Assembly (NCBI GenBank): GCA_023129715.1
Contig: JAGMBO010000032.1
Span: 22,057 to 86,056, forward strand
Length of the DNA: 64,000 bases
Source: Candidatus Eiseniibacteriota bacterium
Lineage (GTDB): Bacteria > Eisenbacteria > RBG-16-71-46 > CAIMUX01 > WJJG01
Direction: 5' to 3'
Below the pieces are notes generated by a model. It had not been told where the DNA came from and did no database searches. It worked only from the letters and a program-made list of their open reading frames with translations. Of the stretch, positions 51,485 to 57,394 are shown piece by piece. A program made the translations under genes and the position numbers. Each line of letters starts with the position of its first letter. Position 1 is the stretch's first letter.

Positions 51485-51781
51485 AACTCGACACCAGTTA
51501 TCGGCCGCGACAGCGACCGACTGAGGCATTACTATAGGAAAGGCTGCCACCTCCCGGCAACCACGATTTGAGCCCTCCCGGCGCCGGGTGGGGGGAAGGG
51601 GCTCGGGCAGACCCCCCGGGCGCCTGCCGACAAGCCGCCGAACGCATGTCGGCAACCCGCCGAACGCATGTCGACAGGCCGCCGGTCGTCCGGCGACGGG
51701 CCGCCGGCCGGATCAGGGGAGAGGCACCCGGTGGCGGTCGCGATCTGCGGTCGAGGTCTGCGGTCGAGATCAAGAGGTGTC

Positions 51782-53530
51782 ATGCCGCAGGAGCGATTCA
51801 GAGCCCTCGACGACTTCCGCGTCCGGGCGGTCTTGGTCTGCGGGTTTCTGGGCTTGGTGAGTGCGCTTACCTTTGACCCGAAGCTCTATGTCAGCGGGGA
51901 CAACGTCGAGTACATCCTGCTCGGCCAGCGGGTGCTCCGCGAGGGGGTCCTATGGGGCAGCCGCAAGTTCCCGCCCTTCTTCCCGCTGCTCTTGAGCCCC
52001 ATCCAGGCCTTCTGGGGAATCGCCTGGGTGCCGCAGAAGATCTTCGTCTCGCTCCTTTACGTGGCGACGGGCCCGTTGTTCCTGCGCATGGCCGAGCGGG
52101 TCCTTCCCCGGCGCCTCGCGCTCCCGGTGACGGCGCTGGCCCTGATCTCGATCCCGGTGCTCGAGTTCTCGCACTATGTGATGTCGGAGGTTCCTTATCT
52201 TCTGCTCTTCACGGCCGCCCTGGTGGCCGGAGAGCGCTTGTTCAGGGTGCCGGGGGGGCAGGTATCCTGCGCCTCCGCACGGACCCGCACGGGATCGCCG
52301 GCCGCATCGCCGGTCGCGCCGCCGTCCGCATTGCCGACCTCTCCGCAGTCCGCCGCCTCACGCTCCACCACGCGCACGGCACTCCTGCTCTTCTTTCTCT
52401 TCTCCGGCTGCGCGTTCTATACCCGCAGCGTCGGTCTCGTCCTGTCGGCGGCCCTCGTCTCCCTCGCGCTCCTCGAGCGCCGCTGGCGCTTCGCCCTGGC
52501 GGGAGTCGGACTGACCGGGGTCGTCCTGATCCCCTGGATTTTCCATACCTATTTCTCGGGACTCGGGGGGGAGACCTATCTGACGCAAGTCCTGCGCATC
52601 AATCCCTACTACCCCGAGGAGGGCTTGCTGACCCCTGCCGCGCTTTTCGATCGGGTGGCCCACAATGCCGCCCGCTACTTCACCGTCGAGATTCCCCGGC
52701 TGTTGGCGCCGCTGGCGTTCGAGAGCACATATCTGCCGCGGCCCGAGGTGCACATTGCCTGGCCCGCCTATCTGTGGGGCTTGCCGCTGCTCCTCCTGCT
52801 TGCCGGCGTGTTGCGCGGGATGGTGCGCTTGCCCTTGACGACGACGGCTCTGTTGCTCTCCTTGCTTGTTTGCCTGCTCTGGCCGCCAATCTGGACGAGC
52901 GTGCGCTTCATCATTCCGCTCGTCCCGCTGCTGATTCTCTTCTTCCTTGCCGGGATCCATGCGTCGATGGGGTGGATTGGGCCGCTCCGGCGCTGGGCCG
53001 GACTTGCCACTACAGTCTTTCTGGTCCTGCTGCTTGCCCTCGGGGGACGCAATCTCCACCTCTATGATCAGGAGACCCGCGAGTATCCCCGGCCGTGGGC
53101 CTACTACTTCGAGGCAGCCCAGTGGGCCGGGGATCACCTGCCCACCGGGAGTCTAGTCGTCGACCGCAAGGCGGCGATGTTCACGCTCGTCTCGGGTCTG
53201 CCGGCGATCAGTTTTCCCCGTGAGGAAGACCCCGATCGCATGGTTGCCCACTTCCGGGAAAGGGGTGTGCGATTCGTCCACGCCTCTTCGATTCCCTATG
53301 ACGATCTGCCCCGCTTCCTCTTCCCCACGATCCGGCAGCGTCCGGAGTACTTCGCTCCCCACTGGCGGACGGAGCAGGTATCGGGGATGATGAGCGCGAT
53401 TCTCGAGTTCGATCCTGCCGGTCGTGGGGTGGGGCTTCCGGAGCACATCCGTCGGGAACGACTCGAAGACAAGGCCGCCGGTCGCGGTCCACCCAATGGA
53501 ACAACCGGGAGCAGAGCGGCCGGACCATGA
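51782..53530 (+). CDS. Glycosyltransferase family 39 / ArnT-like polytopic membrane glycosyltransferase.
   Basis: Twelve or more TM helices, dolichyl-phosphate-mannose/ArnT-like N-terminal loop, C-terminal soluble domain. RBS AAGAGGTG. Confidence 0.65.
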   Translation: MPQERFRALDDFRVRAVLVCGFLGLVSALTFDPKLYVSGDNVEYILLGQRVLREGVLWGSRKFPPFFPLLLSPIQAFWGIAWVPQKIFVSLLYVATGPLFLRMAERVLPRRLALPVTALALISIPVLEFSHYVMSEVPYLLLFTAALVAGERLFRVPGGQVSCASARTRTGSPAASPVAPPSALPTSPQSAASRSTTRTALLLFFLFSGCAFYTRSVGLVLSAALVSLALLERRWRFALAGVGLTGVVLIPWIFHTYFSGLGGETYLTQVLRINPYYPEEGLLTPAALFDRVAHNAARYFTVEIPRLLAPLAFESTYLPRPEVHIAWPAYLWGLPLLLLLAGVLRGMVRLPLTTTALLLSLLVCLLWPPIWTSVRFIIPLVPLLILFFLAGIHASMGWIGPLRRWAGLATTVFLVLLLALGGRNLHLYDQETREYPRPWAYYFEAAQWAGDHLPTGSLVVDRKAAMFTLVSGLPAISFPREEDPDRMVAHFRERGVRFVHASSIPYDDLPRFLFPTIRQRPEYFAPHWRTEQVSGMMSAILEFDPAGRGVGLPEHIRRERLEDKAAGRGPPNGTTGSRAAGP

Positions 53531-53618: not shown

Positions 53619-54485
53619 GTGTCGCACCCGCTGGGGAAACTAGAGCAACAGATTACGCGTGCCTGGGAAGCGGCGGATGGTGCTGCACGCAGCGCTGCAC
53701 GCAGCGCCGCGCGCGAGGCGGTGGAAGAGGCGGTGCGCTCCCTCGACCAGGGCGAAGTGCGCGTGGCCGAGAAGCAAGGAGAGAGGTGGATCGTCCATGG
53801 CTGGCTTCAGATGGCGATCCTGCTCTACTTCGCTCAGCACGAGGCGGAGTTCACGGAGGCGGGCCCGCTTGCCTTTCGGGACAAGCTGCCCGTCAAGCGC
53901 GACTTGACCGCACGCCAGGTCCGGGTCGTGCCGCCCGGCACGGCGCGCTACGGCAGCTTCCTCGAGCCGGGAGTCGTGCTCATGCCGGGCTATGTCAATA
54001 TCGGGGCTTACGTTGGCGCAGGCTCCCTGATAGACACATGGGCGACGATCGGCAGCGGTGCTCAGATCGGACGCGAGGTCCACATCTCCGGCGGTGTTGG
54101 GATTGGCGGAGTTCTGGAACCCCCGCAAGCCCGGCCGGTGATTGTCGAGGACGGCGCCTTTATCGGCTCGCGTTGCATTCTCGTCGAGGGGGTCTGGGTT
54201 GGCGCCGGTGCGGTACTTGGCGCCGGTTGTGTCGTCACCGCCTCGACACCGATCATCGATGTGCGTGGCCCGCGGCCGGAGGTCGGGCGCGGGCGGGTGC
54301 CGCCTGGGTGCGTGGCGATTCCGGGCACCTGGCCGCATCGTTTCCCAGCCGGTGAGTTCAATGTACCCTGTGTCCTGATCGTGGGCGAGCGCAAGGCATC
54401 GACCGATCGCAAGACACAGCTCAACGAGATCCTGCGAGAGTTCCCCCTTGTGGGTTCGCTGGGGGATGCGCCGCGAGGGGAGTAG
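53619..54485 (+). CDS. dapD: 2,3,4,5-tetrahydropyridine-2,6-dicarboxylate N-succinyltransferase (or acetyltransferase).
   Basis: Close collinearity with E. coli DapD (...RVVPPGTARYGSFLEPGVVLMPGYVNIGAYVGAGSLIDTWATIGSGAQIGREVHISGGVGIGGVLEP...). GTG start with GGGAGGG. Confidence 0.85.
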   Translation: MSHPLGKLEQQITRAWEAADGAARSAARSAAREAVEEAVRSLDQGEVRVAEKQGERWIVHGWLQMAILLYFAQHEAEFTEAGPLAFRDKLPVKRDLTARQVRVVPPGTARYGSFLEPGVVLMPGYVNIGAYVGAGSLIDTWATIGSGAQIGREVHISGGVGIGGVLEPPQARPVIVEDGAFIGSRCILVEGVWVGAGAVLGAGCVVTASTPIIDVRGPRPEVGRGRVPPGCVAIPGTWPHRFPAGEFNVPCVLIVGERKASTDRKTQLNEILREFPLVGSLGDAPRGE

Positions 54486-57394
54486 TGGGTCGACATCCCG
54501 GCAGGCGACCGGGAGAGGCCCCGCGGATGAACATGGACACGGCAAGGAAGGCGGGCTGGAAGATGGTCAAGAAGACGCCCAAGAGCGCAGCCAGAAAGAC
54601 AGCCAGAAAGACGGCCAAGAAGGCGGTCAAGAAGGCAGTCAGGAAGACGGCCCGGAAGCCTGCCGGAAGGACGGCCAAGAAGGCTGCCAAGAGGGCTGCC
54701 AGGAAGACGACCAGGACAGTTGCCAAGAAGGTCTCCAGGAAGACGGCCAAGAAGGCAGCCGGGAAGACGACCAAGAGAGCGGCGCCGAAGCGCGCCCGCC
54801 GCACTAAGGGAGCCGCCAAGAACAGCGCCGCGCGAGCTCTCGTTGGTCGCCCGGGGGCTACGCGCAAGGCTGCCGCCCGCAAGGTCGCCATCCGCAAGGG
54901 CGGCGTGCGTAAGGAGACGCGCCCGACGAAGAAGACCGCGTCCCACGCCCATGTCGATCTCGAGCGCTTCGCCGTCGACCCGGCGGATCTGCGTTGGCGC
55001 TGCGACTTCGGCGGGTTCGGTTTCGCCTCGACCGAGGAACTGCCGACCTTCGAGGGCATCATCGGCCAGGATCGGGCGATGGATGCGATTCGCCTGGGAC
55101 TGAAGATGCGCAGCAAAGGCTACAACATTTACGTGGCCGGGTATCCCGGGACCGGCAAGATGACGACGATCCGGCACCTGCTGAAAACCGTCGAGACCGG
55201 CCGCCGGATTCCGCCCGATATCGTATACGTCAACAACTTCCGCGATTCCGACATGCCGCGGGCCCTGCTGCTTCCGGCGGGCCAGGGCTGCCGCCTGCGC
55301 GACGACATGAAGACCCTGGTCACCAACGTGCAGCGCAACATCGCGCAGATCTACGAGAGCGAAGACTACAAGGAGCGCATGAAGGCGCTGATCGAGGAGT
55401 ACAAGGAGCGGGAGAAGACCTACTTGCGCGACTTCGAGGAGCGCATCCGTAAGGAGAACTTCGCCCTCATCCAAGTGCAGCTCGGTCCCTTCTCCAAGCC
55501 CGAGATCGCCCCGATCATCGCCGGCGAGCCGGTGCAGATGGAGCGCCTCGACACCCTGACGCATCAGGGCAAGTTCGGCAAGGAAGAGTACGACCGGCTG
55601 AGAGAGAAGTACGAGGACCTGACCACCGATATGGAGAAGGCCTTCAAGGCCTCCCGGAACCTGAAGCGCGAGCTGCGTGAGGCGATGGCGAAGATCCAGA
55701 AGGAGTTCGGCTCCCCGGCGGTGACCGACTACATCAAGGATCTGAAGAGCGAGTACGACGATCCCGGGGTTCTCGAGTACCTCAAGGAAGCCCAGGAGGA
55801 GATCCTCAATAACATGGAGCGCTTCACCGACGGCGACGACGGAGAAGAGCAGAAGAAGCCACAGCAGGGCCAGCCTCAGTCGGAGGCCTTGGACGACCGC
55901 TTCCGCGACTTTTCGGTCAATGTGCTGGTCGACAACTCGGCGACCAAGGAACCGCCGATGATCATCGAGACTAGCCCCAACTACCGCAACCTCTTCGGCG
56001 CCATCGACCGCGTTGTCGACCGCTCGGGCCACTGGGTGAGCGATTTCACGCGCATCAAGGCGGGAAGTCTGATGCGGGCCAATGGCGGCACGCTGGTCAT
56101 CAACCTAATGGATGCGATCGTCGAGCCGGGGGTCTGGATCGGATTGAAGCGCACCCTGAAGCATCAGAAGATCGACATCCAGAGTTTCGACCCCTTCTAC
56201 CTCTACTCGGTCTCGGTGATCAAGCCCGAGCCGATTCCGCTCGACTTGAAGGTGGTCGTCGTCGGTGACCGGCACGCCTATCACATCCTCTACAACTACG
56301 ACGACGACTTCCGGAAGATCTTCAAGGTCAAGGCCGAGTTCGACACCGAGATGCGCTGCACCGAGGAGAATGTCCAGAAATACGTCAACTTCGCGCGCAA
56401 GATCACTAGTGAGGAGAAGCTTTTGCCCCTGGATGCCAGGGGGGTCGGAGCCCTCATCGAGCACGGCATCCGCCTCGCCGGACGCCAGAACCGCCTGACC
56501 ACGCGCTTCAGCATCATCGCCGACGTGATCCGCGAGGGTGACCTGTGGGCGCGTGAGGCGCAGGCGGCGCGCATTGGGGCCGAGCACATCCACCAGGCAG
56601 TCTCGGCGCGTGACGAGCGGGTGCGGCTAACCGAGGAGAAGCTGCAAGAGCTGATCGACGAGAACGTCATTCTGATCGACACAGAGGGGGCCGAGATCGG
56701 CCAGGTCAACGGCCTCTCGGTTCTCGATCTCGGCGACTACGCCTTCGGGCGCCCCTCGCGCATCACGGCCAAGGTCTCGCTGGGCCGCGCGGGGATCGTC
56801 AACATCGATCGCGAGGCGGAGCTCTCGGGCAAGACTCACAACAAGGGCGTACTGATCCTCACAGGCTACTTCCGCAGTCTCTTCGCCGGGGAGTTGCCCC
56901 TGGCGATCAACGCCACGATCTGCTTCGAGCAGTCCTATGGCGGGATCGACGGCGACAGCGCCTCTTCGACCGAGATGTACGCGCTGCTCTCCGCCCTCTC
57001 CGGCGTGCCCCTGCGCCAAGACATCGCGGTAACGGGAAGCATGAACCAGAACGGGATCAGCCAGCCGATCGGCGGGGTCAACGAGAAGATCGAGGGGTTC
57101 TACGAGGTCTGCAAGGCGCGCGGCCTGACCGGACGGCAGGGCGTGATGATCCCGCAGGCCAACGTTCCCGATCTGATGCTCAAGCCGGAGGTGAGCGATG
57201 CGGTGCGCGCGGGCCGGTTCCACATCTACGCGGTAGAGACGATTTCCCAAGGCATCGAGATCTTGACCGGACTTCCGGCGGGCGAGCCGGCCGCGGATGG
57301 GCGCTACCCGGAGGACTCGGTCTTTGGCCGCGTCGAGCGGGAGGTGCGGCGCTTCGCCGAGCTGAGCCGCTCCTTCAAGGTCCGGGAGGAGTAG
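54485..57394 (+). CDS. Lon-like (S16) AAA+ protease with a roughly 150-aa N-terminal histone-H1/AlgP-like lysine-rich KKAAK-repeat tail.
   Basis: N-terminus ARKTARKTAKKAVKKAVRKTARK... Walker A GYPGTGKMT. Ser-Lys dyad contexts DGDSASSTE and GGVNEKIEG. The track start is GTG 54485 (first ATG is 14 codons downstream at track coordinate 54527; both starts print 1 nt lower in the sequence because of the offset noted in the summary). Confidence 0.75.
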   Translation: MGRHPGRRPGEAPRMNMDTARKAGWKMVKKTPKSAARKTARKTAKKAVKKAVRKTARKPAGRTAKKAAKRAARKTTRTVAKKVSRKTAKKAAGKTTKRAAPKRARRTKGAAKNSAARALVGRPGATRKAAARKVAIRKGGVRKETRPTKKTASHAHVDLERFAVDPADLRWRCDFGGFGFASTEELPTFEGIIGQDRAMDAIRLGLKMRSKGYNIYVAGYPGTGKMTTIRHLLKTVETGRRIPPDIVYVNNFRDSDMPRALLLPAGQGCRLRDDMKTLVTNVQRNIAQIYESEDYKERMKALIEEYKEREKTYLRDFEERIRKENFALIQVQLGPFSKPEIAPIIAGEPVQMERLDTLTHQGKFGKEEYDRLREKYEDLTTDMEKAFKASRNLKRELREAMAKIQKEFGSPAVTDYIKDLKSEYDDPGVLEYLKEAQEEILNNMERFTDGDDGEEQKKPQQGQPQSEALDDRFRDFSVNVLVDNSATKEPPMIIETSPNYRNLFGAIDRVVDRSGHWVSDFTRIKAGSLMRANGGTLVINLMDAIVEPGVWIGLKRTLKHQKIDIQSFDPFYLYSVSVIKPEPIPLDLKVVVVGDRHAYHILYNYDDDFRKIFKVKAEFDTEMRCTEENVQKYVNFARKITSEEKLLPLDARGVGALIEHGIRLAGRQNRLTTRFSIIADVIREGDLWAREAQAARIGAEHIHQAVSARDERVRLTEEKLQELIDENVILIDTEGAEIGQVNGLSVLDLGDYAFGRPSRITAKVSLGRAGIVNIDREAELSGKTHNKGVLILTGYFRSLFAGELPLAINATICFEQSYGGIDGDSASSTEMYALLSALSGVPLRQDIAVTGSMNQNGISQPIGGVNEKIEGFYEVCKARGLTGRQGVMIPQANVPDLMLKPEVSDAVRAGRFHIYAVETISQGIEILTGLPAGEPAADGRYPEDSVFGRVEREVRRFAELSRSFKVREE

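Follow-up and report, generated by a model that had tools for sequence, protein, structure and literature searches.

We analyzed a 64,000-nt stretch of contig JAGMBO010000032.1 of Candidatus Eiseniibacteriota bacterium (GC 65%; hereafter, the window), in which a gene on the forward strand encodes a Lon-like protease of the LonC subfamily with a long polycationic N-terminal tail. The open reading frame (ORF) occupies 54485..57394 (+) and comprises 969 aa counted from the first GTG (54485); the likeliest lonC-type gene lies at 54527..57394 (+), with 955 codons and a stop. A reading of the window made without database searches (the sequence-only reading) had described this ORF as a Lon-like AAA+ protease fused to a histone-H1/AlgP-like repeat tail. 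The ORF and its basic N-terminal repeats were confirmed, and residues 1–144 have a net charge of +51 and a pI of 12.0. LonC proteases and H1-like tails are each known; their fusion appears undescribed, as had been surmised, since no account of a LonC protein with a polybasic repeat tail was found in the searchable literature. LonC reviews list no such N-terminal element.

The ATG at 54527 is likely the correct start, because a Shine-Dalgarno (SD)-like sequence, GGGAGAGG, can be read 8 nt upstream of it at 54511..54518 (+), whereas the GTG at 54485 overlaps the stop codon of the preceding dapD-like gene. An SD-like run stands just 2–3 nt from that GTG. The 955-aa protein translated from the ATG is identical to the NCBI entry “AAA family ATPase [Candidatus Eisenbacteria sp.]”, and three contigs of independent assembly carry it (those of GCA_030629055.1 and of a Logan assembly included); therefore, an assembly artefact was ruled out.

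The tail covers residues 1–144 (54527..54958, +). It contains 33 Lys (23%), 21 Arg (15%), 34 Ala (24%), 17 Thr, 9 Val, 8 Gly, 5 Pro (3%), and 3 Asp or Glu residues. The core of the protein has a net charge of −18 and a pI of 5.4, and the tail shifts the net charge of the protomer from −18 to +33. Residues 13–96 (54563..54814, +) form ~20 consecutive x-x-[KR]-[KR] tetrapeptides (TARK, TAKK, AVKK, and others), encoded by imperfect 12-nt tandem repeats of the kind that the sequence-only reading had pointed out. Tandem Repeats Finder detected periods of 12, 48, and 60 over 54539-54780 with 67–78% matches, and a repeat search resolved 54539-54778 into 13 copies that keep a 12-nt register. The basic residues of the tail showed an autocorrelation of +0.64 at lags 4, 8, and 12 and of −0.7 at lags 2, 6, and 10. 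AlphaFold2 (AF2) predicted helices at residues 20–41 and 49–77 with a predicted local distance difference test score (pLDDT) of ~70; elsewhere, the tail was modeled as low-confidence coil (pLDDT <50) and is predicted to be disordered.

The sequence evidence indicates that translation includes the tail, because its third-codon-position GC content (GC3; 0.83 in the tail vs. 0.89 in the core) and its Lys codons (AAG in 33/33) follow the usage of the core, SD-like motifs precede the starts, no start codon lies at the core boundary, and no internal promoter was found. It has to be weighed whether the tail is an annotation artefact, in which the repeat region would be untranslated leader DNA and translation would begin downstream. 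The sole alternative start, an in-frame GTG (Val135, in GGVRKE) 10 codons before the core, could serve such a start, and a stop-free run of 144 codons can arise by chance at this base composition with p ~0.023. However, no in-frame ATG, GTG, or TTG exists at the position where tail-less orthologs start, SD-like motifs precede the first codon of the tail in orthologs as in the window gene (L003, AAAGGAGGT; L005, AAGAGGAGA; L007, GAGGGAGGA), and basic extensions are in frame in ~25 orthologs from independent assemblies. We therefore regard an untranslated tail as extremely improbable, and the earlier statement that the tail is in frame and translated holds. Promoter-like sites were absent inside and around the lonC repeat region, terminator-like matches there were at or below shuffle expectation, and every Rfam match in or around the repeat was far below the gathering score.

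Gene calls can err at such tails. At L007:2714-3000, the public call of the ortholog P0003 starts 81–96 codons too late; an in-frame, R/G/K-rich extension of 81–96 aa follows the dapD stop, with its own SD-like motif 8 nt before GTG 2758. We accordingly rejected P0003 as a tail-less ortholog. Since gene callers can clip tails, database lengths understate how common tails are.

The likeness of the tail to H1 and AlgP, which the sequence-only reading had proposed, stands for composition and for the four-residue period; judged from the sequence, it is not homology. The tail contains no KPAA motif and three AKKA motifs, and the H1-like model NF038053 (hist_H1_lk_Burk) matched it with an E-value of 0.66, scoring 10.2 bits where the cutoff is 80. 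A search with the tail alone against 5.8 billion proteins gave one match, an unrelated 237-aa protein from a Logan contig (P0121, E 3e-4), and the rest were removed by composition-bias correction. The first ~90 residues of P0121 are AKKAAKKAPRAAAKK-type repeats, followed by a C-terminal region without a Pfam domain; it is a further case of such tails joined to a different partner. Scanned in six frames, the window and ~90 kb of tail-bearing ortholog loci contained no K-rich basic low-complexity stretch other than the lonC tail. The basic tail is specific to lonC within the sampled genome neighborhoods, and an organism-wide habit of basic tails was not seen in them.

The LonC-type core and its ATPase-like motifs

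Both sequence and the AF2 model clearly assign the core to the LonC subfamily of Lon-like proteases (MEROPS S16.007), which agrees with the earlier view of a Lon-like enzyme outside LonA and LonB. A Pfam scan of the protein matched LonC_helical (E 3.4e-13), AAA_32, LonB_AAA-LID (E 1.5e-21), and Lon_C (E 1.6e-09), while LonB and Lon appeared only as sub-threshold matches in the NCBIfam scan. The best solved relatives were entries of the MtaLonC/TTC1975 type (E 8e-94), with archaeal LonB (E 3e-35) and LonA far behind. The AF2 model, built on an alignment of 78 homologs, had a mean pLDDT of 84; the core was mostly above 90, and the score exceeded 90 from residue ~141 onward. The top Foldseek match of the model was the full-length cryo-EM chain of MtaLonC (8k8v_A; 806 columns, TMt 0.87).

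At the N-terminal end of the core, alignments identify a conserved motif, L..LRW.CD...GIIGQ.RA, together with the first half of the AAA-like α/β subdomain (54959..55282, +); this is where tail-less orthologs start. It is followed by the LonC-specific helical-hairpin extension with its β-hairpin hook (residues ~253–460; 55283..55906, +), recognized by Pfam, AF2, and Foldseek, which lies within the α/β subdomain and is modeled with helices at residues 253–309, strands at 312–331, and a long helix at 352–409. The second half of the α/β subdomain (AAA_32; 55949..56344, +), the AAA+ lid subdomain (56426..56620, +), and the Lon S16 protease domain (56672..57256, +; supported by the Lon_C match and by the dyad and insertion columns of the alignment) complete the protein. 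Its C-terminus, ...SFKVREE, bears no polybasic tail.

Published criteria for LonC (PMC3391209, PMC9569914, PMC13069640) were compared with the alignments. The catalytic Ser811 (in GDSAS; 56957-56959, +) and Lys854 (in NEKIEG; 57086-57088, +) align to S582 and K625 of MtaLonC and are invariant in 119/119 homologs, so the Ser-Lys dyad reported from the sequence is indeed present. The residue before Ser811 is Asp and not Pro, as in LonB and LonC (PMC9569914). The LonC-specific insertion CX3GLX(G/E) (PMC3391209) was found as CKARGLTG at residues 862–869 (57110-57133, +), after the helix of the catalytic Lys, and its columns are conserved among the homologs (C in 117/120, G in 109, L in 107, and G in 111). 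At the second LonC-specific insertion (helix α5; V660–V664 in MtaLonC), the region LKPEVSDAVRAGRFHIYAV aligns without gaps to LRAEVLEAVRAGQFHIYAV of MtaLonC. The Pfam scan gave no LON_substr_bdg match for a LonA N-terminal domain, and a LonB-type transmembrane (TM) segment was absent, as the maximum 19-aa Kyte-Doolittle hydropathy over the whole protein was 1.41. The same value led us to reject a signal peptide or TM role of the N-terminus, which has no hydrophobic stretch. The protein is thus not a LonA, given that it lacks the N-domain and has Asp in place of Pro before the catalytic Ser.

The comparison with MtaLonC and TTC1975 (PDB 4fw9, 8k8v) shows the same order of parts: an AAA-like α/β subdomain split by the helical-hairpin extension, then a lid, and then an S16 protease. 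Both have the Ser-Lys dyad with Asp before Ser, the CX3GLXG insertion, and degenerate Walker motifs, and neither a LonA N-domain nor a TM segment. In contrast, the identity to MtaLonC is only ~26–28%, the helical-hairpin extension is longer in the window protein, and the 144-aa polycationic tail is absent in MtaLonC and in ~95% of the sampled family members.

The sequence-only reading had called the Walker A motif intact and the protein an AAA+ enzyme. A Walker A-like P-loop, GYPGTGKMT, is present at residues 205–213 (55139..55165, +), where it aligns to GPPSLGKHE of MtaLonC. Its Lys is kept, and to that extent the former statement stands; however, Met replaces the Mg-coordinating Ser or Thr, and among 120 homologs the column of this Lys holds Arg in 77 and Lys in 43, with Thr in 56 and Met in 32 at the next column. 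The Walker B-like sequence LVINLMD (56093-56113, +; within the AAA_32 region) has Asn-Leu where Asp-Glu would be expected and lacks an acidic pair; the residual Walker B Asp of MtaLonC aligns with this Asn. The window P-loop is closer to the canonical form than that of MtaLonC (GYPGTGKM vs. GPPSLGKH), while its Walker B is more degenerate. The canonical motifs of AAA+ ATPases (Walker A GxxxxGK[ST] and Walker B hhhhDE) were thus not found, and the term AAA+ does not apply in the sense of a canonical ATPase. Databases label such proteins “AAA family ATPase”.

The characterized LonC enzymes MtaLonC and TTC1975 lack ATPase activity, and phosphate is all that the P-loop of MtaLonC binds (PMC3391209, PMC13069640). 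Because the Walker A motif is non-canonical and the Walker B motif lacks acidic residues, ATP hydrolysis is unlikely in the window protein, and its protease is probably ATP-independent by analogy with these enzymes.

Tails among LonC proteins

The sequence-only reading had named, as part of the finding that would speak against it, orthologs that all lack the tail. This was not what the ortholog comparison found. In a neighbor-joining tree of the 120 best homologs, the 27 closest (61–76% core identity) formed a single clade, and nearly all of them have basic N-terminal extensions of 17–144 aa that are unrelated in sequence. Examples are extensions of 138 aa with net charge +42 (P0017), 99 aa with 41% Lys and +45 (P0025), 97 aa with +24 (P0007), 82 Arg-rich residues with +20 (P0002), and 71 aa with +29 (P0009). 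The repeat units vary among the tailed orthologs (KKVT, KKKVVA, AKGKKAA, or RG-rich). In sister Eisenbacteria clades (≤61% identity), the proteins start within 0–5 residues of the core. The gene order dapD, lonC, an rluD-like gene on the opposite strand, and rsgA is common to tailed and tail-less members; the members are therefore orthologs, located in a housekeeping neighborhood.

These sequence comparisons show that the tail arose at the base of one Eisenbacteria clade and was then kept with fast turnover of its length (0–144 aa), repeat unit, and K/R ratio. Since the charge was kept while these features changed, selection would have acted on positive charge and not on sequence. At the two loci with extreme composition, the tail is Lys-rich at 0.55 GC and Arg/Gly-rich at 0.69 GC. 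In the window gene, the Arg codons AGG and AGA make up 10/21 in the tail vs. 2/66 in the core, a skew consistent with a footprint of repeated AAG (Lys)–AGG (Arg) changes in the array under selection for charge. Compensation of a more acidic core by the tail was considered as well and rejected, as the net charge of the core was −15.6 in the tailed clade and −15.4 elsewhere, with r 0.07 within the clade.

The same data bear on the view that the tail is a nearly neutral expansion, in which a 12-nt repeat prone to slippage lengthened at the gene's 5′ end and was tolerated without a specific function. The imperfect tandem repeat, the wide variation of tail length among orthologs, and the tail-less state of one close relative (P0024) would be expected from such growth. 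However, positive charge was kept across a clade with 61–76% core identity although the repeat units are not homologous, the replacement of Lys by Arg preserves charge, basic tails were gained independently in other lineages, and no other gene is so expanded in ~150 kb of sampled Eisenbacteria DNA. We thus find neutral expansion quite unlikely.

The wider LonC family counts 8,299 representatives (50% clustering, E 1e-3 or better). Among the 149 best representatives, the N-terminal extension had a median of 3 aa and exceeded 50 aa in just three. A contig scan with the family alignment, which served as a tail-less control, found at least 80 loci, all from other phyla, with no Eisenbacteria among the matches listed; over 79 genome loci of many phyla among the matches listed, the maximal upstream ORF had a median of 7 aa. 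Several tblastn matches appeared to extend into the tail (L029, L045, L065, L075, L078, and L086) but were spurious when read in frame.

Basic tails also occur outside the tailed Eisenbacteria clade. P0136 and a Gemmatimonadetes MAG protein (L047), which are 72% identical to each other, have tails of 58 aa (+27) and 46 aa (+13), respectively; P0155 has a tail of 101 aa (+21) and P0175 one of 44 aa (+9). P0136/L047, P0155, and P0175 are only 40–47% identical to everything else compared. On these sequences, independent gains of a basic N-terminal tail number at least two or three, each in an unrelated lineage of LonC. Furthermore, a short polybasic C-terminal tail (net charge of at least +6 over the last 15 aa), such as KKVAKKSMKKKRKKR, was found in 20 of ~270 family members.

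P0017, P0089, P0092, P0096, P0124–P0127, P0136, and P0200 are among the bearers of C-terminal tails, and P0017 and P0136 have basic tails at both termini. Three proteins of a sister Eisenbacteria subclade (P0068, P0074, and P0122) have acidic Pro/Gly-rich N-terminal extensions of 55–87 aa with net charges of −4 to −13. Disordered appendages, be they basic or acidic, seem to have a hotspot at the N-terminus of LonC.

Possible tethering to polyanions

We propose, with a probability of roughly 0.6, that the window protein is a LonC protease whose acquired polycationic tail would tether the enzyme to DNA, RNA, or polyphosphate (polyP), by analogy with known basic tails. The nucleoid-tethered or polyP-regulated protease suggested by the sequence-only reading is reasonable by this analogy. 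As a LonC protease, the enzyme consists of a Ser-Lys protease chamber that forms hexamers, an AAA-like ring that is degenerate, and a “basket” of helical hairpins, and, by analogy with MtaLonC, it probably breaks down or holds unfolded polypeptides independently of ATP hydrolysis. To this, one sublineage of Candidatus Eisenbacteria has added the polycationic repeat tail at the N-terminus. Six tails, with a combined charge of ~+300 per hexamer, would project from the AAA-like face and may bind a cellular polyanion non-specifically, namely chromosomal DNA, RNA or ribosomes, or polyP. A protease/chaperone that works without ATP and is otherwise unregulated would thereby be concentrated on the nucleoid or on granules of polyP, and this localization may bias it toward proteins that reside there. 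The tail would be a dedicated-appendage equivalent of both the basic DNA- and polyP-binding surface patch of LonA and the tethering by KPAA tails in AlgP and PhaF.

In Pseudomonas, the KPAA tail of AlgP binds DNA and is required for the spacing of polyP granules (PMC9239181), and that of PhaF serves as a tether between polyhydroxyalkanoate (PHA) granules and DNA and also binds specific mRNAs (PMC9239181, PMC12818456). Like these, the window tail is long and Lys/Ala-rich, has a tetrapeptide period and predicted disorder, is encoded by tandem DNA repeats, is joined to an unrelated functional domain, and varies in repeat number among orthologs. In contrast, it is N-terminal, whereas the tails of AlgP and PhaF are C-terminal; two of the four residues in its unit, [T/A][A/V][K/R][K/R], are basic, and Pro is almost absent; and it has a high content of Arg and Thr and is partly predicted to be helical. 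No homology to the AlgP and PhaF tails was detectable.

LonA enzymes bind DNA and polyP through basic residues on the ATPase domain, which redirects their choice of substrates (reviewed in PMC7566177). In enzymes of this kind, such as E. coli Lon and mitochondrial LONP1, association with DNA or polyP co-localizes the protease with its substrates, and the function proposed for the window protein follows the same principle. LonA, however, binds by a folded ATPase domain and is an ATP-dependent enzyme, whereas the window protein would use a separate disordered appendage on an enzyme that is probably unable to hydrolyze ATP. The CarD protein of Anaeromyxobacter, among other bacterial enzymes and regulators, reportedly has an appended H1-like Lys-rich domain. 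By analogy with CarD-type proteins, the K/A-rich low-complexity domain may act as a module for DNA binding, interchangeable and specific to a lineage, on a core protein that is conserved; unlike in CarD, the partner here is a chambered protease and not a transcription factor.

Some of our results weigh against tethering. The scans of the tail against Pfam and NCBIfam at E-values up to 10 gave no significant match to a curated DNA-binding or H1-like model, and the tail lacks the Pro-rich KPAA/AAKP motif of the experimentally studied bacterial tails. P0024 is a genuine case of tail loss, with a 34-nt gap after dapD and an in-frame stop; this loss and the length range of 17–144 aa indicate that some genomes can do without the tail. 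Slippage during replication can also expand basic low-complexity tails under little selective constraint. Finally, the ATP independence that we infer comes from motifs and from MtaLonC and TTC1975, yet the window P-loop is, as described above, nearer to the canonical form than that of MtaLonC.

The tail may instead serve in substrate capture or as a chaperone appendage. In that case, the tails would form electrostatic “fishing lines” at the basket mouth and catch unfolded proteins that are acidic or bound to nucleic acid, or they would be entropic bristles by which the holdase form stays soluble; they would have no localizing role. This agrees with the position of the N-terminus in the AAA-like α/β subdomain, from the top face of which the substrate-recognizing hairpin extensions protrude (PMC13069640), and with the dual protease/chaperone activity of LonC. 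The acidic N-terminal extensions of the sister subclade suggest in addition that LonC proteins may generally tune their client preference at the N-terminus. However, the polybasic C-terminal tails lie on the opposite, protease face of the ring and fit tethering better. Because polybasic tails occur at either terminus, and hence on opposite ring faces, tethering would be favored over capture near the pore; we consider substrate capture unlikely.

The partner of the tail might also be a membrane. The tail would then bind anionic phospholipids and place LonC at the inner membrane, in lieu of the TM anchor of LonB. Polybasic stretches are able to bind acidic lipids. LonB is the sister subfamily of LonC, and its anchor occupies the site of the LonC helical insertion (PMC3391209, PMC13069640). 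The tail, however, has no hydrophobic or aromatic residues for insertion into a bilayer except a single Trp at residue 11, the protein has no TM segment, and the studied tails of similar composition bind nucleic acid or polyP. Thus, membrane tethering appears very unlikely.

A more far-reaching version of tethering to polyanions would make LonC a resident of a polyanion compartment, either the nucleoid or, under starvation, polyP-DNA condensates. The multivalent tails would co-condense with polyP or DNA into an ATP-independent proteolytic and holdase micro-compartment, a solution at which several phyla (Eisenbacteria, Gemmatimonadota, and others) would have arrived by convergence, with polybasic appendages at either the N- or the C-terminus. 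Such a micro-compartment, if it exists, would suit energy-starved cells; we offer this version as speculative and rather doubtful.

The reason why Lon proteases bind DNA and polyP is still debated, and the binding surface of LonA lies within the ATPase domain and is therefore hard to separate from catalysis. The tail described here is a separable, purely electrostatic appendage on the simplest Lon relative, which probably lacks an ATPase cycle, and it was kept as its clade diversified and re-invented in other lineages. It thus offers a deletable handle on whether tethering to polyanions is by itself sufficient to give a chambered protease substrate selectivity. Our proposal would extend the set of bacterial enzymes for which H1-like tails serve as localization modules. 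A by-product concerns annotation, namely the “AAA family ATPase” labels and the occasional clipping of tails by gene callers, as in P0003.

Gene neighborhood

The gene directly 5′ of lonC (53619..54485, +) is dapD-like, encoding a tetrahydrodipicolinate N-succinyltransferase-like protein with THDPS_N_2 and hexapeptide repeats; it lies outside the protease and provides context as a conserved neighbor. A dapD gene holds this position in the window and in L003, L005, L006, L007, and L008. The gap between dapD and lonC is 19–59 nt by public gene calls, in tailed and tail-less Eisenbacteria alike; in L007, it is 288 nt by the public call and becomes ~45 nt if the proposed GTG 2758 is used. No promoter-like or terminator-like site was found between the two genes. 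They are probably co-transcribed as a conserved dapD–lonC operon. On the 3′ side, lonC is followed by the gene for the rluD-like pseudouridine synthase on the opposite strand and then by rsgA. Upstream of dapD, a gene at 51668-53530 (+) encodes a multi-pass hydrophobic protein of 582–620 aa with a Pro/Ser/Ala-rich internal linker, for which no Pfam match is on record; it is conserved beside dapD in L001, L002, and L007.

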